NCBI GenBank assembly: GCA_052327205.1
Contig: CM126212.1
Location: 16,244,001 to 16,308,000, forward strand
DNA: 64,000 bases
From: Somniosus microcephalus
Lineage: Eukaryota
Direction: 5' to 3'
Part shown: piece after piece, positions 479 through 60,483 of the stretch
Layout of the letters: every line of letters starts with the position of its first letter
How positions within the stretch are numbered: the stretch's first letter is position 1
Made by a program: the position numbers and the translations under genes
The notes under the pieces: model-generated
Seen by the model: only the letters and a program-made list of their open reading frames with translations
Told to the model about the DNA's origin: nothing
Databases searched by the model: none

Positions 479-1494
479 CAAAACACAAACATTTATTATG
501 AGTTGATATAGTTGCCTACGCAAAATATTAAAATATTTAGAACACATAGTTCTGTAGTGATACCAGCAGAAGCTATTTCAAAAAACAAGGTCTGGTGCAG
601 TGACAGGCACTTCCCCAGGAGTTAAAGACTGACAAATGTGCCAGTGTAAGCCTTAACTCAAAGGCTCTCACTACAGTCAGACTTGCATGCTCGATAGGTT
701 GGATAATGCACTCTGTGAGTGGAATGGAAGTGTGCCAGAGAAGACCAATACTTAGCAGGAGGAAATATAACGTCTGATAGGACTTGTCTAAAATACACAG
801 AAACTACTCAACAAGTGATTTTATTTCACCCCATCTGCTAATTTACCTGACAGAGAGGGGAAAACGTGCCTCTTTTTCCAGGACAGTAACCTAATGGATC
901 CGCAATAAACCTTTGCTTTGGACACTTAACTCTTCAGTTGTCAAAAGGTGTTTCTATTTGTAAAACTGAATTTATATTTTGTTTTATTCCAACACCTTCC
1001 TGCAATTCTTTCCCCACTGACACGGATTAGTAAACATGCAAACTCTCAGCAGCCCAACGTGACTGGACACTACAAGGACGAATTCAACAAAGGACTCATT
1101 TCCAAACTGTACGCCAATCAGATGGCATCACAGAATGCAACGAGGGGCTTCACGTCTGTGATTTCCCACATAACAAGTCCTATATCTTGATTAGGCCATG
1201 AGGACAAAACACTGAATGGAACTGAGGTCTTTCCCTATCGGTCAGCTGTGGCTCAGTGGGCAGCACTCTCGCCTCTGAGTCAGAAGGTTGTGGGTTTAAG
1301 TCCCACTCCAGAGGCTTGAGCACAAAAATCTAGGCCAACACTCCAATGCAGTGCTGAGGGAGCGCTGCACTGTCGGAGGGGCCGTCTTTTGGATGAGATG
1401 TTAAACCGAGGCCTTGTCTGCTCTCTCAGGTGGACATAAAAGATCCCACGGCACTATTCCGAAGAAGAGCAGTGGAGTTATCCCCAGTGTCCTG

Positions 1495-1751
1495 TGTTGT
1501 GTATGTAATATGTGTGCTACTTTGAACCTATGGACAGGACTGCACTACTTGTTGGGCGTAGTGATACGCAGTACCACTCCTGGCCATAGGGGTATAAATA
1601 GTACTGTGGGTACTGATCTCCCCTCAGTTCCCGCCTGTGGGCATGAAGTAAAGACCTATGTATAGTCCCTACCTCCAACCAGTAAAGACCTGTTTGAGTT
1701 ATACGTTTAAGTCTTTGTGTTAATTGTTCAATACAATACACATACTTAACA
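1495..1751 (+). promoter_or_regulatory. 5' LTR of the chimeric element
   Basis: TG...CA ends, TATAAATA near 1593, and two AGTAAAGACCT copies (polyA-signal variant) at about 1648 and 1681. Confidence 0.85.
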
Positions 1752-2305
1752 CTGGCGACGAGTCTGATTCGGACCCTGCGGCAGTCACTCCACGGCAGCT
1801 TCGTCCACAGCCAGGACGTTGCAGAGAGGTTTCCACCCTCTCCACCCCACTGGAAGACATCCTGACCTCGGAGCCTCCATCGGCGACCGTCAGCTTCTTC
1901 TCCAGCTTGGTGGTGGGTAAGCCGTTGTCTGAGCCGGGCAGCGACGCGACAGGCAGTCGACCGCGTTGGCCGCACGAACGGGGCTGGGGGAGCTGGAGGA
2001 ATAGGGCGCGAGAGCCGCTTCGAGCGGGAGGCGTTTCAACAGAGCGATCGCATCTCCTGATAAGAGCCGAGAGCCGCTTCGCGATCCAGCGATCGCATCC
2101 GCTGATAAGGGCCGCACTCGGGCGATCGCGGCGAAGATAAGGGCCGCACTCGGGGGCTGAAGGGAGACGGCGTCGGGGGACGGGTGAAGACCGCCAAGCG
2201 CGGGAAAACCGCCATTTTGTGGGCGGAGGACGACGGCAAGAGCGGGAAGCCGCCATCTTTGATAACAAGTAAAGAAAATAAAATCTGAGAAATTGCAAAT
2301 CTACA

Positions 2306-4522
2306 ATGCCTAAACACGGGAATATTAGCACCTTTGATAGTGACCTCGAAGATTGGGCCATATATGTTGAAAGAGTAAAAAATTATTGTAAGGCCAATAA
2401 AATTCGTGACCAAGATAAAGCTCTAACATTATTAAATTTAATGGGTGCGAAGACATACGGGCAATTGAAACACCTGTTATCACCAGATGAACCGGCGGAT
2501 AAGACGTTCGATGAGATTGTTACTGTCCTGAAAGATCATCTAAACCCCACGCCGCTGATGCTAGCGGAACGATTTAAATTTTACGACAGAAGGCAGCTAC
2601 AGCATGAAAGCAATGCTGATTATTTGCTGGAATTGCGTAAATTAGCGAAATATTGCCAGTTTGGAACGGGACTGACAGAGGCACTTCGAGACAAATTTGT
2701 GTGTGGTTTATTTAAACAGGATACACAAAAGCGACTGCTAGAGGAGAATGAGCTGACGCTTGAGAAGGCGGTCACTATGGCAGCAGCACACGAAGCCGCA
2801 GCGAGAGGCACGGCAGTAATGCAGCTACGGTCACCGGAGCTCAGTACACACAAATTGGGTGTGAGTTCTGGCAAATGTTATCGTTGTGGAAAGACAACGC
2901 ATGATGAGAACCAGTGTTGGTTTAAAAACCAAGAATGTAGAACTTGTGGTAGGCTTGGACATATAGCTAGAGTATGCAGGTCAGGGAAGAAGACCAGCAA
3001 CAAGAAGTCACCGCAAGGAAAATACGCAAAGGTACACAAGGTGACCGAACAGGAGTCCGATTCAGACGCTAGCAGTAATGAACTGGCTAGCTTAAGCTGT
3101 AATGAACTGGCTAGCTTAAGAGTACTCAACGCTGGTAAGGGTGCAGACCTCCAGACAATTTGGGTCACTCTTCAGATAGAAGGAGTCCAAGTAAAACTGG
3201 AATTGGACACTGGATCGGCATTGACGGTCATAAATAAGAAAGATTACGGAAAGATATTCCAACATATTCCCCTACAGGATACGGGGATTATATTGAAAAC
3301 ATACACGGGGCAAAGAGTGTACCCCATCGGGAAAATAGAGGTTGCAGTGGTCCACAAGGGCGAAGACAGTCAAATAATGGACTTATATGTGATATCTGAA
3401 GGAGGTTCTCCACTACTAGGACGGGAGTGGATTAGGAAAATGAATATGGACTGGCATTTCCTACAAAAAATAACGAGTGAGAACTCGGTGAAGATAGTCG
3501 GCCCAGACTCTGGAACGGATGATGGTAAGCCCAACTCAGGTGCAAAAGACAAAGTTTCAGCACAGAATTCCACTGAGCAACAACAACATAGTTTAACTGT
3601 GGATTCTGAGTCTGGCAAGTCTACTGATGTGCCCATTTCTGAGGGACACCGGGCTCGAACTCAACTCCATTTCAAACTACAACAGCAATTAGAACAAATG
3701 CTTCGCCGTTGTGAGCAAGAGTTGAATGCAACGAAAGAGTTCTTTGATATAGAGTTGGAGAATCTGGAAAGACAACAGAAGCAGCTGATGGAGAAAATGG
3801 AGCAGGAGCACACAAAACGTCTGATGTCAGAGGAGTTAACGGTCAGCCAACTCCTGCATATGCTGAAGGACAGGACTCTGAAATGGGAAAAACTTGAACA
3901 CGAACTTCAATATTCAAACGAAAGGGGTTCGGAGCTCTCAAAGGTTATTGGAAGAGCTGAGGTGGCAACACAGACTGAGATGACTGCAACAGAGCAGCCC
4001 TTGGATGCCAAAAGTACGCTGACTCACGTCAACGTAGAACAACAGACCGCTGAAACAGCTGCTCCGGTAGAGGGATTGAATAGTCCGATCAATCAATCTC
4101 CAAAAGAAGTTGAAGTAGTAAAATCTCAAATGAGGTCATTAGTAAACGACTTGCTGAAAGCCCAGAAAAAGCTGGATGAAGAGGTACGCATGAAGAAGTC
4201 TCTTCAGGAAAGATGTCTGGACTTGGAACAAAAGCTGGCTAACGCCCAGCTGGGTATGGAGGAAATAGAAGACCCTCTCGCTGGCCTAGATCAGGACGAC
4301 ACCGAATATTACTATGTCCTGTCCTGCCCAACTTGTAACTTCGACTCCCACCATACAGAAATCATGGAGGAGCACCGAAAGTCTACGGAACATCGGGAGA
4401 AGGTGGCTCTACTACGGAAAAAGGAGGGAGAGAAGGAGGAACTGCGCATGCAGCTGGCAGCTGACAGTGGAGCCCAGAGAGTCTCCAAGAAGCAGAAAAG
4501 GAAAAGTCGAAACAGAAGATGA
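2306..4522 (+). CDS. Gag (two CCHC knuckles) + aspartic protease fused in frame to host-derived coiled-coil and C2H2 zinc-finger segments, 738 aa
   Basis: [14 protein letters not shown] and [14 protein letters not shown] knuckles; protease LELDTGS...LLGREW. No YLDD, RNaseH or DDE motifs. Tail resembles STK10/SLK, OPTN and DNAJC21. Confidence 0.9.
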
Positions 4523-5970
4523 CCCATCTGAACCATTATTACCTCTACCAGATCACACACGTGGTCCCTCCGAACGGAGCCAATTCAGTTCGGAAGTTCA
4601 AACTGTTAAATCCATGGAAGGACTATTGAATGAGTCACTCCAGCAACGTGAACCGACTACACCACAGAGATTGAATCTGTGAACTGTTTTCCGCAGAGAC
4701 TGAATCTGTGATCTGTTTTGACATGAAGTTATCTATGTATCTATGTTATTCTGTTATGTAAACCTGAAGTTATATATGTATATATGTTATTACGTTATGT
4801 TAAATGGGGAGATGACTGTAAAGCTAGGAAGGGAGGAACGTTGTGTATGTAATATGTGTGCTACTTTGAACCTATGGACAGGACTGCACTACTTGTTGGG
4901 CGTAGTGATACGCAGTACCACTCCTGGCCATAGGGGTATAAATAGTACTGTGGGTACTGATCTCCCCTCAGTTCCCGCCTGTGGGCATGAAGTAAAGACC
5001 TACGTGTAGTCCCTACCTCCAACCAGTAAAGACCTGTTTGAGTTATACGTTTAAGTCTTTGTGTTAATTGTTCAATACAATACACATACTTAACATCCTG
5101 GCCAATATTTATCCCTCAATCAACTTAACAAAAACAGATTACCTGTATCTGGTCATTATCACATTGCTGTTTGTGGGACCTTGCTGTGCGCAAATTGGCT
5201 GCCGCGTTTCCCACTGTTTACAACAGTGACTACACTCCAAATGTACTTCATTGGCTTCATCGGTGGTCATGAAAGGCGCTAGATAAATGCAAATCTTTCG
5301 TTCTTTCAGGCAGGGGGTAAGATTGCAAAGCAGCTCCAATTGGCATTAACAGAGATCTAGAAACAGGTTGCTTGATCACCCAGAAAATAATACATGGCAC
5401 AAAGAGGGAAGAGAAAATCTCAAACGGGAGAATGAAAATGGTTCCAGCTGATAAAAACGTTGTTATTTTTGCAACCAACCTCTTGCCACAACCCCGTTTT
5501 ATGTTTAGTAGACTCTGAAAGCTCACTTCAGCATGTCTTAACAAGCAGCTCGCTTTCAAGTAGTAAGAAATCAGCTGTCAATAATTTCCTATTTTTCCTC
5601 TTTAAAGTTGATGAATGCGGATTTCACTCTTCCGATAGGTTGAGCCCAATTCACGCACCTTTTCAAAACGCTGCATCTATCTCTGTAACATTTTGACAAT
5701 GCTATATTTGGCACAGGCGCGATGGGCCGAATGGCCTCTTTCTGTGCTGTATGATTTGAAAATAAGAGAGGATGAATACACCTCAAGACACTTTGGAGGT
5801 CGTTTTTGTCTTCACCATTTGAGCGGTAAACCAGTGAGGCCGATCGATGGAAATGAAAATCGGGGGGTTTCTACAGCGGGCCGGACGGGTTCTATAACAG
5901 CCGGACAATCCACTCCGCCAGAATACTGCCTGTGCACAATGCAGACGAAAATTTAATGCACAATATTAAT

Positions 5971-14065: not shown

Positions 14066-16927
14066 TCATAATCATCATCAACTTTATTGTCATTGTTAGT
14101 GCACAAGTGCAGTACAACGAAATGTAGGCTTGCGGCTCCCGAGAGTGTACATTTAGATTAAGACATTTAACATTCAACATTCATTTGGCTTGTAATACAT
14201 AAACATAAACATAAACATAATAAAGTGCATTGGCAGATGTGCAGGCTTTAGAGTTTATTTGTAGAGTTCAGTAGGATGACAGCCCTGGGAAAGCTGTTCC
14301 TAAATCTGGTCGTTCGGGTGCGAATGCATCTGTATATGGATTGGAGGGTAGCTAACGTTACCCCACTATTCAAAAAGGGGGGTAGGGAAAAAGCAGGTAA
14401 TTACAGACCTGTAAGCCTTACATCAGTTGTGGGCAAAATGCTGGAGTCCATCATTAAGGATGAAATAGCGGAGCACTTAGCAAATGGGGACAGGATAGGA
14501 CAGAGTCAACATGGATTTACAAAGGGTAAATCGTGCTTGACTAATCTATTGGAATTTTTTGAGGGAGTAACTGGTAGAATAGATGGGGGAGAGCCAGTAG
14601 ATGTGGTGTACCTGGACTTCCAAAAGGCCTTCGATAAGGTCCCACATAAAAGATTAGCATGGAAAATTGAGGCTCATGGGATAAAGGGGAAAGTTTTGGC
14701 GTGGATAGGGAACTGGCTGTCAGATAGAAAACAGAGAGTTGGAATAAACGGCTCATTTTCTGAATGGCAGGCAGTAACAAGTGGGGTACCACAGGGATCT
14801 GTCCTGGGCCCCCAGCTGTTCACAATTTACATTAATGACCTGGATCAGGGAGTCGGATGCAGCATTTCCAAATTTGCAGACGACACTAAACTAGGAGGGG
14901 GGGTGGGCTCAGAGGAAGAGACCAGGAAGCTCCAGAGCGATTTGGACAGACTGGGCGATTGGGCGGATAAATGGCAGATGCACTATAATGTGGACAAGTG
15001 CGAAGTTATCCACCTTGGGTGCAGGAACGGGAGGGCAAATTATTATTTAAATGGCAATAGATTGGGAGAGGGGGAAGTACAGAGAGACCTGGGTGTTCTT
15101 GTACACCAGTCACTGAAGGCGAGCATGCAGGTGCAACAGGCGGTCAAGAAGGCAAACGGTATGCTGGCCTTCATAGCAAAAGGGTTAGAATACAGGAACA
15201 GGGATACCTTGCTGCAGCTGTACAGGGCACTGGTGAGACCACACCTCGAGTACTGTGTACAGTTTTGGTCGCCTCATCTGAGGAAGGATGTTCTTGCCAT
15301 GGAGGGGGTGCAGCGGCGATTCACCAGGCTGATACCAGGAATGGCGGGAATGACCTATGAGGAGAGACTATGTAGTTTAGGGATGTACACACTGGAGTTT
15401 AGAAGATTGAGAGGGGACCTCATAGAAGTGTATAAAATTCTGACAGGTCTAGACAGACTGGATGCAGAAGGAATGTTTCCCTTGGCGGGTGAGAACAGAA
15501 CTAGAGGACATAATTTAAGGATAAGGGCTAAACCATTTAGGACAGAGATGAGGGGGAATTTCTTCACTCAGAGAGTGGTGAACCTGTGGAACTCATTGCC
15601 ACAGAGGGCAGTGTACGCCAGCTCATTAAATATATTTAAGAGGGAATTAGATATATTTCTACGGGCAAAAGGGGTTAAGGGTTACGGAGAGAAGGCGGGG
15701 ACGGGATACTGAATTAAAGGATCAGCCATGATCTCATCGAATGGCGGAGCAGGCACGAAGGGCCGAATGGCCTACTCCTGCTCCTATCTTCTATGTATCT
15801 ATGTATGTATCTATGTAGCGTCTCCCAGATGGCAGGGGGGCGAACAAACTGTGGCTGGGGTGGGTAGGGTCTTTGATGATGGTCCGTGACCTCCGTAAAC
15901 AGCGTTTCTGGTAGATGTTCTCTATGGTCGGTAGCCGGGTGCCGGTAATGCGTTGGGCAGTTTTGACTACCCGCTGCAGGGCTTTCCGGTCATAGGAGCT
16001 ACAGCTGCCATACCACACTGTGATACAGTTCGTCAGGATGCTCTCTATTGTGCAGCGGTAAAAGTTAGAGAGGATCAGGGGTGACAGGTTACATCCTTTC
16101 AGCCTCCTTAGGAAATATAGGCGCTGCTGGGCCTTCTTCACCAAAGAGGAGGTATTGAGGGACCAGGAGAGGTCTTCCGTGATGTGGACTCCGAGGAACT
16201 TAAAGCTGTCCACCCTTTCCACCACAGCCCCATGGATGTGGATGGGGGTGTGACTTCCGCCTTTAGACTTCCTGAAGTCCACAATGATTTCCTTGGTTTT
16301 CTTGATGTTAAGGGCCAGGTTGTTATCGGCGCACCACTTCACGAGATGCTGGACCTCCTCCCTGTAGGCTGACTCATCGTTGTTGGTGATCTGGCCTACC
16401 ACCGTGGTATCATCCGCAAACTTGATGATGGTGTTGGAACCATGAACAGCCACACAGTCGTGGGTGAAGAGGGAGTAGAGGAGGGGGCTCAGCACACAAC
16501 CTTGTGGGGCCCCCGTGTTCAGGGTCAAGGGGGGGGGGGTGGGGGGGGGAGGTGTGGTGGGAGGTGTGGTTACCTAATTTGACAGACTGGGTCTGTTAGT
16601 TAGGAAGTCCAGGGTCCAGTTGCAAAGGGAAGTGTTCAGGCCAAGAGTGTGGAGTTTGGTGGCCAGCTTGTTGGGGACGATAGTGTTGAATGCTGAGCTG
16701 TAGTCTATGAACAGCATTCTGATGTAGGTCTCCTTACCGTCTAAGTGATTCAATGCAGAATGTAGAGCAGTTGTGATTGCATCCTCTGTTGATCTGTTTG
16801 CACGATAGGCAAACTGGTGTTGGTCAAGAGAGGCGGGAACACTGGCTTTGATGTGAGCCAGGACCAGTCTCTCGAAACACTTCATTATGATGGGCGTGAG
16901 TGCGACAGGTCGATAGTCGTTCAGACC
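14066..16927 (-). mobile_element. 5'-truncated Rex1/Babar LINE interrupted by CR1
   Basis: RT ORFs at 16574-16885 (KCFERLV...[11 protein letters not shown]) and 15791-16528 (GAPQGCVLSP...KFADDT). 3' UTR at 14066-14334. Confidence 0.92.
14337..15817 (+). mobile_element. 5'-truncated young CR1 LINE with intact RT reading frame
   Basis: DWRVANVTPLFKKG...GVPQGSVLGP...KFADDTK with no stops until 15712, then a (ctatgtat)n tail. Confidence 0.95.
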
Positions 16928-21339: not shown

Positions 21340-22238
21340 GGTACAGTAGTATAGTGATTATGTTACTGGACTAGTAATCCAGAGGCCTGGGCTAATAATC
21401 CAGAGAATGCAAGTTCAAATCCCACAATGGCAGCTTGAGAATCTCGATCAGTTTTTTTTTTAAATCTGGTAACAGAGTAAAGTGACCATGAAGGTGTTGG
21501 ATTGTCGTAAAAACCCAACTGGCTCACTAATGTCATTTAGGAAAGGAAACCTGCCATCCTTACCCGGTCTGGCCTATATGTGATTCCAGTCCCACGCCCG
21601 TTCACTGTGTTCATTAGGAAAGGAAATCTACCGTCCTGACCCGGCCTGGCCTATATGTGACTCCGGTCCCACGCCCGTTCACTGTGTTCATTAGGAAAGG
21701 AAATCTACCGTCCTTACCCGGTCTGGCCTATATGTGACTCCGGTCCCACGCCCGTTCACTGTGTTCATTAGGAAAGGAAATCTACCGTCCTTACCCGGTC
21801 TGGCCTATATGTGACTCCGGTCCCACACCCATTCACTGTGTTCATTAGGAAAGGAAATCTACCGTCCTTACCCGGTCTGGCCTATATGTGACTCTGGTCC
21901 CACGCCCGTTCACTGTGTTCATTAGGAAAGGAAGTCTACCGTCCTTACCCGGTCTGGCCTATATGTGACTCCGGTCCCACGCTGGATTCACTGTGTTCTT
22001 TAGGGAAGGAAACCTGTCGTCCTTACCCGGCCTGGCCTATATGTGACTCCAGTCCCACGCCAACGTGGTTGAATCTGAACGGCCCTCTGAAGCGGCCTAA
22101 CAAGATACTCAGTTGTATCAAAACCGCTTAGACTGCAACGATTCAAGAAGGCCCAATACCACCTTCACAGGCCAACCAGGAATGGGCAAAAAATGCCGGC
22201 CTTGCTAGCAATGCCCACACCCCGAGAATGGATAAAAA
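21340..22238 (+). mobile_element. tRNA-derived SINE with an internally amplified core
   Basis: Head ...gttactggactagtaatccagag...gttcaaatccc. Tail gggcaaaaaatgccggccttgctagcaatgcccac resembles the LINE tail at 62085-62135. Confidence 0.8.
21524..22060. repeat. 77-bp minisatellite x7
   Basis: Unit ttcactgtgttcattaggaaaggaaatctaccgtccttacccggtctggcctatatgtgactccggtcccacgcccg. Internal copies start at 21601, 21678, 21755, 21832 and 21909, with more diverged first and last units. Confidence 0.95.
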
Positions 22239-45369: not shown

Positions 45370-48300
45370 TGTAATGTATGTACCTTTAAGGGGGAGAACT
45401 ACTTTTTACAGCTCCTGTATCCTGTAGTACCGGCAGTGACCACACCTGTATATAAACCCTGAGTAGTGATCTGTACAGTCAGTTGCAGTTTGAACCCTCA
45501 TTCAGTAAACACCTGTTGATCGTTCCCTGCAGTCTTTTGTCTGATTATTGAAGGACACAACATTAAAATACCCGGATCTAACATTGGCGACGACAAAGAT
45601 TCGAACCTACCTGCAACTCTGCATCACCTCCCAGGGATTCGCTCCTGGAGAGCAGTGGAGGGAGGTCGAGTCCAGAAGCACAGGCATCGCAGGGGAGGCT
45701 GTCGAGAGCCAGGCTTGGCTTTCCAGTCACGGTGGTCCAGCGAAACGGGCTGGCAACAGGTACTGCGCAGACCCTTCCCGGACAGCGGCGGCTAGAGCCA
45801 ACCGAGCGGCACAGAAAAAGGCCGAGCAGCGTCGACGGGGGAGAGAGGGCAGAGCGCACAGGGCGCAGCTGGTGTTCAAGGGCTGAGCAGCGTTAACGGG
45901 GGAGAGAGGCGAGAGAGAGCAGAGCGCAGCCGGTGTTCAGGACCGAGCGGCGTCAACGGAGGAGAGAGGCGAGAGAGAGCAGAGCGCAGCCGGTGTTCAA
46001 GGGCCGAGCAGCATCAACAGGGGAGAGAGGCGCGCAGGAAAACGCGAGGCGCTGCCACTGCCACGAGGACTGCAGAGAGCGGCATTGGCAGCAGCGCAGG
46101 AGCAGCGCACGAAACCCACAGAGCGTCGCCATTTGCCACGAGGACCGCCGAGAGCGGCGTTGGCAGCAGCGCGGGAGACGCCATTTTAAGCCGCAGCGGG
46201 GAAGAAAGGAAAGCGCGGGAGACGCCATTTTAAGCTGCAGCGGGGAAGAAAGGAAAGCACGGGAGACGCCATTTTAAGCCAGTCTAACCACACCCAAAAA
46301 TGCCGAAGAGTGGCAGTATCACAGCGTTCGACAATGAAGTCGAAGATTGGACGACATATGTCGAACGCATAGAAGTACACTGCAAGGCGAATGAAGTGCC
46401 AGATGACAAGAAAGCGCTGGTATTGTTGAATTCAATGGGTGCAAAAACGTTTGGCTTACTACGAAACCTAGTAACCCCAGAGAAGCCAGTAGAAAAGGAT
46501 TTTGAAAACATAGTGTCAATCCTACAGGACCACTTAAACCCCACACCGCTGCTGATAGCAGAAAGATTTAAGTTTCACAAAAGGAACCAGCATAAAGAGG
46601 AAAGTAATGCTGAGTATTTAACGGAACTGCGCAAGCTATCGAAACACTGCCAGTTTGGAACGGGACTAGCAGATACTTTAAGGGACAAGTTTATGTGTGG
46701 GCTTCAAAGTGAAGGAACCCAGAAACGGCTTCTATCAGAAAAGGATCTTACGCTGGACAAGGCTTTCAGCATTGCAGTATCACACGAAGCAGCTGCACGG
46801 GGCGCTGCAGAGATACAACGGAGACCGCAAGAATATGGCACAAATGAAATGTTATACGGAACAGTGAAGTGCTATCGCTGCGACAGAACAACACACGACC
46901 ATAATGATTGCTGGTTCAAGGACAAAGTGTGCAGACAGTGTGGAAAAGTAGGACACATAGCAAGAGTCTGCAGGTCGGGAAAGAAAACCAGCAGCAAGAA
47001 ATCTCCACAGGAGAAGTACAAGAAGGTACATAAGGTGACGGAGAGTAGTTCAGACGAACAGAAGAGTGATACAGACTCCGGAAGCAAGGAGCTGGGTTGT
47101 CTGAAACTACATAATGTGATCAAAACGGAGGATCACCAAACTATCTGGGTCACGCTCAAGATAGCAGGAGTCCAAGTGAAAATGGAATTGGACACAGGAT
47201 CAGCCCTAACAGTCATAAACCGAAGGGACTACAAGCAACTATTCTCACATATACCCTTGAGAGATACAAAGATTGTCTTGAAGACGTACACGGGGCAAAA
47301 AGTCTACCCCAAAGGAAAAATAAGGGTGAACGTTATATATAATGGCAAGGAAACACCAAAAATGGACCTATATGTATTGCCAGATGGAGGACCACCACTA
47401 CTAGGACGTGAATGGATCCGGAAGATACAGCTAGATTGGCATTCCATACAAGCACTGACTGTAGATGCCAAAAAGGATGACGACGTCACACCTGGACGAC
47501 TGTCAAAAATGCTAACTGACGCACAAGAAGTGTTCCAGCAGGGACTCGGAACACTAAAAGGCATAACAGCGATGATCAAAATAGAGGAAAATGCAAGCCC
47601 AAAGTTTTTTAAGGCCAGACCGGTACCTTATGCGATCCGCCCAGCCGTCGAAGCAGAGCTGGAAGGTTTGGAACGTTCAGGAGTACTGTCCAAAGTGGAC
47701 TGGAGTGAGTGGGCTACACCCATCGTTCCTGTAATGAAGAGGTCGTTGAGTAATACGCCTGGGGAACCAAAGAAGGTTCGCATCCGTGGGGACTTTAAGG
47801 TGACAGTGAACCCAGTCCTTCACACTGTACAATATCCGCTTCCGCGGATTGAAGATATTTTCGCCTTGCTATCTGGAGGGAAACGCTTCACTAAGATTGA
47901 TCTGGCCCAGGCGTACCTGTAAATGGAGGTAGAAGAAGCCTCGAAACAGTACCTCACGATCAACACTCATAAAGGTCTCTACCAATACAACCGGCTGGTG
48001 TTCGGGGTAGCATCAGCTCCAGCTATTTGGCAAAGGGCAATGGAACAAGTCCTGCAAGGGATTCCAGGGACCCAGTGTTATTTGGACGACATCCTGGTCA
48101 CGGGTGAAAATGACAGTGATCACCTCGCCAACCTGGAGCAGGTGCTCACTAGATTGAAGGAATATGGGCTTCGAGCTAATCACCACAAATGCGAGTTTTT
48201 CCAGACGCAGATCTCGTATTGTGGCCACGTTATTGATAAAGAGGGGTTACATAAGTCCCCTGAAAAGATTGAGGCAGTAGTCAAGGCTCCAGCACCGGAA

Positions 48301-50576
48301 AATGTGTCACAACTGAGGTCGTTCCTCGGGCTGGTGAACTACTACCATAAGTTCTTGCCGAATTTGTCTACCGTACTACACCCACTGAACACCCTACTGC
48401 AAACGGGGGTACCATGGAAGTGGAGTGACAAATGTAAACGAGCTTTCCAGAACAGCAAAGCGTTGATCACATCAAAAGAGGTGTTGGCTCATTTCAACCC
48501 AGCACTACCAATTCGGTTGGCGTGTGATGCATCACCCTATGGCATTGGAGCGGTGCTGTCGCACAAATTCCCGGACGGCTCGGAGAGGCCAGTAGCCTTT
48601 GCGTCTTGGTCACTAACCTCAGCCGAACGAAACTACGCCCAGATTGACAGGGAGGCCCTCAGCCTAGTGTGGGGAGTGAAAAAGTTCAATCACTATCTGC
48701 ACGGGCAGAAGTTCACCTTGCTGACTGACCACCAACCACTTGTCTCCATCTTTAATCCAAAGAAGGGCGTTCCGGTGATGACTGCGCAACGGCTACAAAG
48801 ATGGTCCCTTTTTCTAGGGGCGCACCAATATGATATCGAGTATAAGGGCACGAAACAGCATGGAAACGCTGATGGGCTATCACGCCTGCCACTGCCTACT
48901 GTGGAGGAAGCACCAGCAGCGGATCCTGTCGAAATATTTCATTCGACTATAATTGAATGCTTGCCAGTAACTAACGCTGGTATAGAGAAGGAGACCCGAA
49001 ATGACCCGACACTGTCTCGGGTATATGATTTGACGGTGAAGGGATGGCCAGCACATGGCGACTCACTGTTGCCAGCATTCTCATCCAGAAGAGAACAGCT
49101 GTCAGTATGCCAGGGGATCTTGATGTGTGGATCCCGAGTGGTAATTCCACCCAAGTTAAGGGAGAGAGTGCTCAATGAGCTTCACGAAGGTCATCTGGGA
49201 GGGGTGAAAATGAAAAGCCTTGCTAGGGCTTATGTGTGGTGGCCGGGGATCGATCAGCAAATCGAGGACCTGACAAAGAGCTGCTCAGGATGCCAGAAGG
49301 TCCAAAATGCACCACCACATGCCCCTCTACACCCATGGGAGTGGCCCTCATCTCCATGGCAACAGGTGCATATTGATTTTGCTGGTCCATTCATGGACTC
49401 AATGTTTTTAATAGCCGTGGATGCGCACTCGAAATGGCCTGAGGTGATCAAAATGTCCTCCACCACCACAGAGAAAACTATTGCAGTCCTACGGACCATT
49501 TTTGCCAGGAACGGCTTGCCAGAGCAGATTTGCTCTGATAACGGACCACAGTTTGTGTCCGAAGAGTTTCGAAGATTTATGAAAAGGAATGGGGTAAGGC
49601 ATTACACATCCGCCCCGTATCATCCAGCCACAAATGGATTGGCTGAGAGGTTCGTACAAACCTTTAAAAAAGCAGTAAAGGCCATGTGCGATGATGACAT
49701 TCCACTGCAGCATAAGGTGGATAATTTCCTGTTAGCCTTCAGAAATGCGACACATGCAGTCACCAACCAGGCCCCGGCCATGATGTTCTTTAACCGAAGG
49801 TTGAGATCTCGTCTGGATTTGCTCAGACCAAATGTACGAAGAGATGTTGAGAATAAGCAATTCCAGCACATCAATGAGAAGCCGACAAGGAGCTTCAATG
49901 TAGGGCAACCAGTCTTGGCCCGCGACTGCCTAACAGAGAAATGGCAACCAGGAACGATATGCACAAGGCAGGGGCCACTAATGTACACAGTGGATGTTGG
50001 GGAGAACATTGTGAGACGCCATGCTGACCAGATCCTAGAGTCACAGGAACGAGTCAACCCCATGTCTCGGCCATACGTACCTGGTGAGGAACCCGATGTA
50101 CAGGTCGCATCTACCTCAGAAACAATAGCATTGGAAGCTGATGAATCAACTGACGACAGGGTGTTAGAATCGCCTCCGCACCAAGAGCGAGACACTCGGG
50201 AAAGGCGTTATCCAGAAAGAATCAGGAATCCGCCCCAAAGACTGAATTTATAAATAGACTATTTTCAGTTAATGTTGCATGTTAAAAGTGTTAATTGTAA
50301 TTAGTTTGATATTTAATTGTTAAATGAGTGTTATGGTACTGTTAATCTAAAAGGGGAGGAATTGTAATGTATGTACCTTTAAGGGGGAGAACTACTTTTT
50401 ACAGCTCCTGTATCCTGTCGTACCGGCAGTGACCACACCTGTATATAAACCCTGAGTAGTGATCTGTACAGTCAGTTGCAGTTTGAACCCTCATTCAGTA
50501 AACACCTGTTGATCGTTCCCTGCAGTCTTTTGTCTGATTATTGAAGGACACAACATTAAGATACTCGGATCTAACA
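45370..50576 (+). mobile_element. Full-length Ty3/Gypsy (Mag-type) LTR retrotransposon
   Basis: 214-bp LTRs at 45370-45583 and 50363-50576 with 3 differences counted by eye. TSD TGCCA (45365-45369, 50577-50581). PBS TGGCGACGA at 45585 and PPT aaaaggggaggaa. Confidence 0.97.
46300..50253 (+). pseudogene. gag-pol polyprotein (Gag, PR, RT, RNaseH, IN) with one in-frame premature TAA at 47920-47922
   Basis: ORFs 46300-47922 and 47923-50253 are in the same frame. Motifs: DTGS protease, YLDD RT, DAS RNaseH, HHCC and D..D..E integrase, C-terminus PPQRLNL. The stop replaces the conserved Q of AYLQ (CAA>TAA). Confidence 0.95.
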
Positions 50577-52628
50577 TGCCACTCAACACATCCCCATCAC
50601 TCTGCCATCCCTACCCTACTCCTGCACATCGTTACACCTCCACCCATCCCTCTCTATCTACATTATCACTTCCCCATCTCACTGGCCACCCCTCACACTC
50701 GTCCTCATCCCACTGCAAGCATACCAACTAACAACACACAAGGGTAGGCACTTGAGAGGTTTAGCCAATGTCCAGGTGAAGTTTCTGGTAATGTGTTGTC
50801 ATACAGTGAAATCTATATTTTCAACACTGCCCCTCATTGGACAGATCTGTGCTCACTTTGAGAAGTGTCTTACTGAGTTCCAGTGAATGTTGGGACATAA
50901 CTTCCCCCCCACCCCCCTGTAGTGATGAGTGTGCATGGAATGGCTTGGACATTAAAGGGATGCTTTACGGTGCTGGTGTGGGATGGTGTCCACCTGGTGC
51001 GGGATGGTGTCCACCTGGTGCATCATGTGGCAGCCAGGGTTAACAGCGTCAAGTGAAGTAAATCTGGCCATGGCGATGCCATCGCTCGCCTCCTGGGCAG
51101 CAGCGTTGTCGGGGGCTGATGCCCTGTGTCCTGTGCAGCATCAGGTGATGTCAGAGAAGATTGGTGATGTTGTCAGTGATGTTGGTGTGCCTGGTGATAT
51201 TGGTGTTGGGGCTGATCGTGGAAGGATTCGGAGGACCACGGTCTGATTTTCCCAAGGGCACCGATGTTGTTGCAATAGATGGCAGCTGCAGGTGAGATGA
51301 CAGAAGCGATCTGTCAATGGTGAGAGAGGTTGTGCCAATGAGGTGGCACTGGACATACAGTTGGCTCTAAACACTTGTAAGCTAAAGAAATCTCTATATG
51401 TCTTACAAATGCAGTAACCAACAGTTTCTGCGCTCTGAAACTGACCATCTGCAACATGGCATCCTTTACACCACTTCTGCAGCTGTCAGCTTATCAGATA
51501 CATCAGAGCAGACTCAACTCATGCCAGGGTGAGCTGGCGTGTTCCCCGAGCAGCGGGTAACCCGTGGGGGAGAACGTAAAATTGGAAGGAAGCCTCAAAA
51601 TAGTCTTAAATTGGCTCTTAACAAGCCATTTAATGAGCTCAATTGTCTCCCCCACCACTTGGTGTTGGGTCAGTTCTCCGCTGACAGACCCGACACCTGG
51701 GAGACTCGCGTGGAGGCGGGTTGACAGCGGGTTTCCTACCCGCTGTCAATCTTTGCTATTTTGACAGCGGACCCGCCTCCAAACCTGCCCTCTGAGCGCT
51801 GGCAAAATTCTGGCCTTCGTGTAAGGTTTTGTGCACAGTGTTTGAAATGGCACTTTCCACAACGTGAGGTGCTTCCCAAATTGGATTTGTGCCATGCCTC
51901 ATGGGCCACACGAGAAACATCTGCAAAGGTGAAGAGCGTGCAACATTCATCTAGTCCCTGATAGCAGGACATTTCTTCCTCATTCGCAGGCGGGTAAAAA
52001 GGCGGTGGGTGACTGCACTGGTTGGGTTGGCGACCTGCCTCCGTTCAGTTTGCACCCGTGCTTTTACTGCAGGGTGGGCTTCAGCCCCACAGAGATACAC
52101 CCTCCTTGGGTGCAACTTTGGCAGCAAGACCTCCAACCCGCCAGCATCAAGGGGGAGTAGTGTTGCCCACAAGTTTCCGCTACGCCATCAACGATTAGTC
52201 CATTTTTCTGCTACTGCCATAACCATCCCCCTTTACGCTGAGCTGCAGCCCTTCAACAGCTGCTGCCTCACTGGATTTTGTGCTAAGTGTTCAACAGGCC
52301 AAGCTCTCTGCGCAAGCTATTCCTCTGCCTGGTCCTTCCCAAGGTACAGACGCAAGCATGGCCCCAATTCTGCCGGGATCAGAGTATGTACAAAGGTCCT
52401 ACTCACCAACATGTTGGAGCTGTGGCAGGATACTGCTCCACATTACCCATGTTATTGTTACCACTGACATTCATTTTTAATCCACTGGACCAAGCTTTCT
52501 CTGGCTTCAAGGGTTAAGTTACTTTTCCCTGACCCGGATTAAGTTACGAGGAGAGATTACACAAATTAGGGTTGTATTCCCTAGAAGTTAGAAGGTCAAG
52601 GAGTGATCTAATTGAAGTTTTCAAGGTA

Positions 52629-59385: not shown

Positions 59386-60240
59386 AATCATCATAATCAA
59401 TCATAATCAACTTTATTGTCATTGTTAGTGCACAAGTGCAGTACAACGAAATGTAGGCTTGCAGCTCCCGAGAGTGTACATTTAGATTAAGACATTTAAA
59501 CATTCAACATACATTTGGCTTGTAATACATTAACATAAACATAACCATAATAAAGTGCATTGGCAGATGTGCAGGCTTTAGAGTTTATTTGTGGAGTTCA
59601 GTAGGATGACAGCCCTGGGAAAGAAGCTGTTCCTAAATCTGGTCGTACGGGTGCGAATGCATCTGTAGTGTCTCCCAGATGGCAGGAGGGCGAACAGACT
59701 GTGGCTGGGGTGGGTAAGGTCTTTGATGATGGACCGTGACCTCCGTAAACAGCGTTTCTGGTAGATGTGCTCTATGGTCGGTAGCCGGGTGCCGGTAATG
59801 CGTTGGGCAGTTTTGACTACCCGCTGCAGGGCTTTCCGGTCATAGTAGCTACAGCTGCCATACCATACTGTGATACAGTTCGTCAGGATGCTCTCTATTG
59901 TGCAGCGGTAAAAGTTAGAGAGGATCAGGGGTGACAGGTTACATCCCTTCAGCCTCCTTAGGAAATATAGGCGCTGCTGGGCCTTCTTCACCAGAGAGGA
60001 GGTATTGAGGGACCAGGCGAGGTCTTCCGTGATGTGGACTCCGAGGAACTTAAAGCTGTCCACCCTTTCCACCACAGCCCCATTGATGTGGATGGGGGTG
60101 TGACTTCCGCCTTTAGACTTCCTGAAGTCCACAATGATTTCTTTGGTTTTCTTGATGTTAAGGGCCAGGTTGTTATCGGCGCACCACTTCACGAGATGCT
60201 GGACCTCCTCCCTGTAGGCTGACTCATCGTTGTTGGTGAT
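59386..60240 (-). mobile_element. 5'-truncated Rex1/Babar LINE
   Basis: ORF 59578-60192 (WCADNNLALN...KKAQQRLYFLRRL...RFRNSFFPRAV), near-identical to 15818-16390. Confidence 0.93.
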
Positions 60241-60483
60241 CCTTTTGTGTGGAAAAAGTACATCCTGACTTCCTGCTTAAATTAATAGCAAAATACTGCG
60301 GAAGGCACTGGCTCATTACTGAAATATGGTTCCACGGGCGTGTTGTGCCTCCTACTACCTCACTCAGTCCGGCATTCTTCACCCGCTAGCTTAGACAGCA
60401 ATTGTCAGCAAGCTATGGTTCTGGCGCTCATCCCAACATCCAGACTCAATTGATAGCAAAATACTGCGGATGCTGGAAATCCG

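Follow-up and report, generated by a model that had tools for sequence, protein, structure and literature searches.

Retroposition of host RNA through LTR elements (PMC5131818) and pseudogenes derived from circular RNA (circRNA), among them a mouse family of 33 flanked by ERVs (PMC4897178), are both already known. The mouse copies, derived from circRFWD2, comprise 33 of high confidence that were termed pseudogenes, and the mechanism of their formation was called mysterious (PMC4897178); as at the locus described here, their context is one of LTRs, with MMERVK10C-int named in a supplement legend of that paper. The LTR-mediated cases number few copies each, and the word 'circular' is absent from the main text of the report as far as it is drawn on here (PMC5131818). 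Host circRNAs can be encapsidated by retroviral Gag particles, according to the parts of a preprint cited here (bioRxiv 10.64898/2026.01.21.700838); these deal with packaging, a precondition of the model proposed below, in exogenous retroviruses, and report no genomic capture. A search of the open PMC and bioRxiv literature returned no paper naming circSTK10, no report of the family described here, and none of a coding capture, in frame and of one turn, whose parent and intermediates are preserved. Our analysis concerns the window, a 64,000-nt stretch of the Somniosus microcephalus genome (GCA_052327205.1, contig CM126212.1), in which the segment at 3641-3823 is most likely the remnant of a circular RNA, made of exons A-E of STK10, that was captured by a Ty3/gypsy-type LTR retrotransposon.

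The segment sits within a young, non-autonomous Ty3/gypsy-type LTR element that spans 1495-5095 (Table 1). Hallmarks of this group found in the window copy are LTRs with TG...CA ends and a target-site duplication (TSD), together with a CCHC-bearing gag and an aspartyl protease (PR); the reverse transcriptase (RT)-RNase H-integrase order is present in relatives and missing here, a Pfam scan of the element's ORF having found all three domains absent. By its sequence, the element is a non-autonomous derivative of a Ty3/gypsy LTR retrotransposon, which may belong to the Mag clade, judging from its 5-bp TSD and two CCHC knuckles. The two LTRs show 2 mismatches over 1496-1751 and differ in the first base too, the 3' LTR of the window starting with C. 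The gag is 77-79% identical in nucleotides to that of RT-bearing relatives, and Asp_protease_2 scores over its cut-off in sister copies. When the whole 738-aa ORF was used for a PDB sequence search, weak zinc-knuckle matches only were returned. The junction between the two exon B pieces falls on a microhomology, and in the A-B piece further down upstream exons are placed downstream; this permuted piece lies mostly beyond the stop codon and in another frame.

Table 1. Features of the cargo-bearing element in the window.
Feature	Position	Strand	Basis
Target-site duplication, 5 bp, left	1490..1494	+	Identical 5-mer at 5096-5100
5' LTR (TG...CA)	1495..1751	+	256-nt direct repeat, 99%
Probable primer-binding site (PBS)	1753..1762	+	TGG-starting motif directly after LTR; similar in second element; label inferred
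Single 738-aa ORF: gag - protease - host cargo	2306..4522	+	Open reading frame and Pfam scan
gag with two CCHC knuckles (aa about 190-225)	2306..3100	+	zf-CCHC E=0.003, below cut-off
Aspartyl protease (LDTG)	3164..3448	+	gag-asp_proteas E=0.003, below cut-off in window
STK10 exon B (linker), two pieces with in-frame internal deletion	3475..3645	+	88% and 86% nt to host
Part of STK10 exon D joined by splicing to part of exon E; PKK1 start	3641..3823	+	PF12474; 167/183 nt
Optineurin exons 5-8 (parts), spliced, in frame	3815..4266	+	Protein and host-exon nucleotide match
Insert X, DNAJC21-like C2H2 zinc finger, within STK10 exon A	4268..4513	+	Via less-derived copy
End of STK10 exon A joined by splicing to start of exon B	4514..4634	+	86-92% nt; A/B splice at 4541/4542
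Remnant of parent's pol C-terminus	4635..4682	+	Junction as in family A; matches parent's pol end
Purine-rich tract before 3' LTR, probable polypurine tract (PPT)	4823..4838	+	Sequence; label inferred
3' LTR	4839..5095	+	Direct repeat of 5' LTR, 99%
Target-site duplication, 5 bp, right	5096..5100	+	Identical to 1490-1494

Elsewhere in the window, a second, full-length gypsy-type element (45370-50577) has the order gag-PR-RT-RH-IN, LTRs of about 207 nt, and a 5-bp TSD. Its frame is interrupted by a single stop codon at 47920-47922, and in the protease region it shares 71% identity with the cargo element. The stretches at 14252-15712, 15791-16573, 59578-60276 and 21460-22059 comprise ordinary LINE-like RT fragments, recognized by eye from ORF lists, and a 77-nt tandem repeat.

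The protein letters from which the first-pass annotation had proposed a captured STK10 coiled coil, fused to Gag, are the exact plus-strand translation of 3641-3823, residues 446-506 of the ORF. The segment scores 38.4 bits against Pfam PKK (PF12474, cut-off 25), and its protein homologs are of STK10 type in 8 of 8 cases, with 75-80% identity (seven named shark STK10, one unnamed, none named SLK). The host STK10 gene was located on the minus strand of G000:C8. Its exon D matches the segment at 81/87 nt and its exon E at 86/96 nt, 167/183 nt in all, and the two are joined exactly at 3727/3728 with removal of a 1,029-nt GT-AG host intron; the fragment thus crosses a host exon junction, as the annotation had suggested checking. 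Exon B, a gene-specific linker, is 85-88% identical to the host in the window copy and 99% in a sister copy. The segment is not a generic coiled coil without nucleotide likeness to STK10, because exons D and E of the host gene match it at the nucleotide level; it is real, host-derived, spliced STK10 DNA, and the proposed capture of a PKK segment is borne out by the host-exon match together with PF12474. Its bounds had been drawn too narrowly, as 3475-3645 is likewise derived from STK10, and so is 4514-4634, which stands out of genomic order. The circular permutation of the cargo, its back-spliced source unit, and the place of STK10 as one of three host cargoes had not been part of that annotation.

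A genome search with full-length STK10 returned dispersed, intron-less stretches in which residues 376-704 are directly followed by residues 290-389; this arrangement was present in 46 of 47 scored candidates, and the 47th contained residues 290-325 only. One such copy (L048) reads B(part)-C-D-E-A-B(part), with 97.5-100% identity to the host. Four of its joins (B/C, C/D, D/E and A/B) are normal splices, all exact, and the fifth connects the donor of exon E exactly to the acceptor of exon A. A 30-mer across this E/A back-splice junction had 1,139 genome matches, which we call family A, and its control had 0. Exons A-E amount to 1,245 nt or 415 codons, with phase 0 at both ends, and in L048 a single reading frame runs from gag through the protease and the circle into the pol end. 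Among back-splice-bearing copies sampled by position, 0 of 6 were fully open; ten copies examined earlier were those that matched best as protein, a choice that favours open frames. No poly(A) was seen at the end of the capture, where the junction passes straight into the pol remnant. Family A copies show the signature by which circRNA-derived copies are defined in PMC4897178, with a non-colinear junction at exact splice sites. This junction is lost from the window's own copy, which, taken by itself, fits the 'low-confidence' class of Dong 2016 (PMC4897178), and the circular origin of that copy therefore rests on its permuted order and on shared breakpoints.

A pattern that joins the protease end to the RT start identified 8 exact genome matches (control 0), and the one RT-bearing relative that was scanned has RT, RNase H and integrase in gypsy order. 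For two of the eight RT-bearing relatives, identity to the least-derived cargo copies is 99% across gag-PR and 100% at the 3' end. At the PR/RT boundary, TATTGGATGAGG is common to 7 of the 8 relatives and STK10 exon B, and it is the sole 12-mer that the five STK10 exons have in common with gag-pol of the parent tested. The pol end of the two closest relatives has 6-8 nt in common with the same host STK10 site, and both parent breakpoints and the host site read LDE in one frame. The capture enters and leaves at one host site, and it therefore comprises one turn of the circle, which in the least-derived copies replaces the parent's RT-RNase H-integrase in frame. The features of an LTR-mediated retrocopy (Tan 2016) are all found: introns are removed, an internal ORF is replaced, and there is microsimilarity at both switch points.

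A sequence of events that would account for these observations can be drawn from general knowledge of reverse transcription and from the model in PMC5131818. Host circSTK10 would have been co-packaged with parent element RNA in a particle. RT may then have switched from the parent RNA to the circle at the 6-8-nt microhomology, close to the pol end, and copied the circle once round; on return to the landing site it would have run out of template, the circle having been opened by RNase H, and would have jumped to the 12-nt match at the PR/RT boundary. The product would retain LTRs, PBS, PPT and gag-PR, and could be copied in trans by RT-bearing relatives. Through later switches at microhomologies the circle would have lost some of its parts, and spliced optineurin and a DNAJC21 piece would have come in; the cargo was probably moved to a more distant gag-PR/LTR backbone, giving rise to the window's family. 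Alternatively, the circle may have been inserted at the PR/RT boundary, with the 12-nt match used for both entry and exit, and the RT-IN region deleted later through the 6-8-nt match. This two-step route would yield the same product and would explain one exact turn without RNase H run-off, but a probe running from the circle end into RT, as expected of a circle-plus-RT intermediate, gave 0 genome matches at 3 mismatches, though many later intermediates persist. Such an absence is not proof; it mildly favours a single capture event. We consider the two-step route possible though unlikely, and it is a variant of the preferred explanation, as a circular template is still required.

The form present in the window, recognized by a 30-mer across its STK10/optineurin junction, has 4,306 genome matches (control 0). 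In a sample of 20 copies of this family, taken by position, two LTRs were found in 18; distinct matching 5-bp TSDs were found in 17 of these 18, and LTR identity was 98.4-100% in 17 of 18. An ORF uninterrupted between gag and tail was present in 15 of the 20. The window family is young, and its spread was by insertion of the integrase type. At one locus (L059-L060, G000:C3 near 263.2 Mb) at least 4 copies of the window family stand in tandem with 3,368-nt spacing and LTRs in common, and at 4 of 18 loci (L051, L054, L056, L057) cargo elements are nested inside related full-length elements.

The mapped copies form a nested series whose intermediates have breakpoints in common. The full circle comes first, followed by a deletion from B430 to D that keeps the back-splice; the back-splice region is then replaced by optineurin exons 3-8, the optineurin end is shortened, DNAJC21 is inserted into exon A, and the window form adds further deletions and a terminal frameshift. 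This is a logical order and is not dated, because all examined copies are young, with LTR identity of about 98-100% in most. The window's gag-PR (2306-3466) is 67-84% identical to that of the nearest cargo intermediate (L116), whereas the cargo is mostly 88-96% identical, which suggests from sequence comparison that the cargo may have moved onto another gag-PR/LTR backbone; a donor of the window's gag-PR backbone was not found.

The second cargo, at 3815-4266, has 72% amino acid identity to residues 226-384 of a named shark optineurin and matches four host exons on C17 at 81-92% of nucleotides in spliced form. It joins STK10 exon E at an 8-nt microhomology. In copies L101-L108 and L118 the optineurin capture starts 8 nt into exon 3, and its other end falls in the final 13 nt of exon 8; with both ends so close to exon edges, the template of this capture might conceivably have been a second circle. 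The older forms (L101-L118) carry an exon-3 motif that is deleted from the 4,306-copy form of the window. Presumably this motif resembles the LC3-binding site of optineurin. Insert X is 63-72% identical to named DNAJC21 proteins in a less-derived copy, with which the window's insert shares 57% over 46 aa. By itself, the window's insert X had no match in a word-indexed search, and the atlas gave generic C2H2 clusters with low recognition. A search for host DNAJC21 through PF21884 returned a match that looks like another zuotin-type gene, which we take to be DNAJC2, and the 40 kb downstream contained no match to X.

Three other copies (L163, L164 and L166) keep the back-splice junction and continue in frame after base 70 of exon A with titin/MyBP-C-like I-set Ig repeats, a fourth host cargo of about 650 nt or more, for which no source gene was found. 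A common in-frame insert of about 450 nt lies between PR and STK10 exon B in L166 (2600-3075) and also in L113, L162 and L164; among these four copies it gave no identification, with a best atlas score of 0.82. Inserts within exons D, E and A of three copies were considered as captures and rejected, being common repeats that also occur in the window.

When the window family was compared with the parent, pN/pS was 0.36 for gag and 0.28 for protease, and both are constrained. For the cargo, 19 of the 20 sampled copies were used (L142 left out) and columns within 6 nt of gaps were removed. The cargo lineage shows 31 nonsynonymous to 19 synonymous changes, compared with 76:32 for single-copy mutations (Fisher p=0.36; 19 copies, a small sample), and 5:3 within the PKK segment itself. 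An earlier value for cargo constraint of p=0.007 was rejected, as it was inflated by misaligned columns and by unpolarised (host-branch) changes. Weak selection at the protein level may act on the cargo, as its pN/pS is below 1 (0.53-0.68) and nearly all junctions are in frame.

The captured tail might in principle be selected, as a Gag fusion or a protease-released tail that binds LOK/SLK, ERM or optineurin partners and serves in localisation or as a decoy. Besides the pN/pS value and the frame kept at nearly every junction of the series, this view can draw on the 15 open copies in 20, on the presence of exons D-E in every mapped branch, on abundant element transcripts, and on the LOK C-terminal domain, the source of the PKK piece (PMC3518218, PMC5400502), which acts as a dominant negative in the passages of PMC3518218 cited here. 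The activities described there, however, belong to residues 310-968 and 586-968, the smaller fragment measuring 383 aa, against 61 aa retained in the window's element and cut at microhomologies, and passages of PMC5400502 term PKK domains 'of unknown function'. Coding-to-coding microhomology alone favours in-frame joins, as does avoidance of premature stops; the last cargo is frameshifted in the window's family, and unrelated cargo, such as the Ig repeats, occupies the same slot in other branches. Selection of the cargo for binding or as a decoy is unlikely in our view, and an explanation other than this or a passenger role has little probability. The dimerisation, ERM targeting and decoy role that had been proposed for the segment find no support in a truncated remnant of 61 aa whose constraint is not significant (p=0.36). 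Instead, the cargo is probably a passenger in a frame that is kept open, and the PKK piece would most likely be carried along in this way rather than as a selected binding module.

RNA reads were taken from two runs of one study (24% and 31% of each), whose species label is possibly not that of the window organism, and were aligned to the host STK10 locus. The B/D deletion joint was present in both runs, with 122+26 and 103+14 reads, and a deletion seen only in the window's family gave 113:14 and 24:6 reads by strand. Provided that library preparation followed the common stranded scheme, this strand bias of the joints is toward the element sense. Trace DNA from thousands of copies would be a possible source of such reads but would carry no strand bias. 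Host-type C/D splices were supported by 1 and 4 reads. In a comparison made with L119 in runs X7 and X8, element STK10 joints outnumbered the C/D splice of the host or family A (195:1 and 134:4 reads); filtering may have removed conserved reads of the host from these two runs. The host E/A circle was not found among the RNA joints listed, in which E/A was shown for one contig run only and host splices were scarce.

This last result is one of the points in favour of a template that was no covalent circle, a linear RNA in which the exons were repeated (A-E-A-E) through trans-splicing or exon repetition. From such an RNA an equally exact E/A junction would be expected, as would one homologous site at the two ends; a comparison of the intron preceding exon A with each of the two introns that follow exon E revealed no repeats, inverted or direct, and non-colinear junctions can arise otherwise, as PMC4897178 warns. 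Against it, exons A-E were each found once in the 120 kb of host STK10 gene fetched, which contain no genomic duplication of them, and sequence from outside A-E (exon F, exon G or the exon preceding A) occurred in 0 of 24 mapped copies (18 + 6), the exon libraries having included flanking exons. The capture length is also exactly one unit, and a linear repeat is, in our judgement, improbable. Even less credible, and largely refuted, is a backward jump of RT on ordinary linear STK10 mRNA with exon edges hit by chance: microhomology jumps are frequent in this lineage, but the E/A joint is exact at donor and acceptor on only a 2-nt match, compared with 4-13-nt matches, mostly inside exons, at the other junctions displayed, and two random breakpoints would both hit exon edges (+-2 nt slack) with a chance of about 4e-4.

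The circular template thus preferred bears on a route from circRNA to DNA that was left open by PMC4897178, and here the parent, both switch points, the junction and intermediates survive in one genome. A base-level model of LTR template switching with one turn emerges, which lends itself to tests with laboratory RTs as well as on the mouse loci. The family constitutes a fossil record of one circRNA in a cartilaginous fish, in which host exons were shuffled and amplified more than 5,400-fold. On the practical side, annotation and RNA-seq will pick up false signals of circSTK10, STK10 and OPTN from its copies. A far-reaching proposal would hold, all at once, that an LTR lineage founded on a whole in-frame circRNA became a serial exon-shuffling vehicle (for STK10, optineurin, DNAJC21, titin/MyBP-C-like Ig repeats and one further ORF that gave no identification), that the one-turn, same-site signature is general to circRNA capture by RNase H-bearing RTs, and that translated Gag-PR-cargo fusions, made from thousands of copies whose RNA exceeds host-type STK10 splices in number, are selected for particle assembly or for blunting host ERM/autophagy; taken together, we regard this as quite unlikely.

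With the mouse circRFWD2 pseudogenes (PMC4897178) the shark family shares the non-colinear back-splice junction, the restriction to circle-resident exons, the lack of poly(A) and the many dispersed copies. It differs from them in its numbers, with 1,139 junction and 4,306 derived copies, and in its coding, in-frame gag-PR fusion; the parent and both breakpoints are resolved, one exact turn is seen, the element is of gypsy type and from a cartilaginous fish, and captures are serial. As in the described cases of LTR-mediated retroposition, in the parts of PMC5131818 cited here, an internal ORF is replaced by spliced host RNA with microsimilarity at both switches, and multi-gene chimeras, in sense and in frame, are amplified as non-autonomous elements. 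Unlike those cases, to the same extent of that source, the first cargo of the shark family is a permuted circle, copies number in the thousands and intermediates are preserved. Maize Bs1 is likewise an LTR element with fragments of three host genes; it is, however, from a plant, and the passages on it cited here (PMC5408686, PMC5131818) do not mention a circular-RNA origin.
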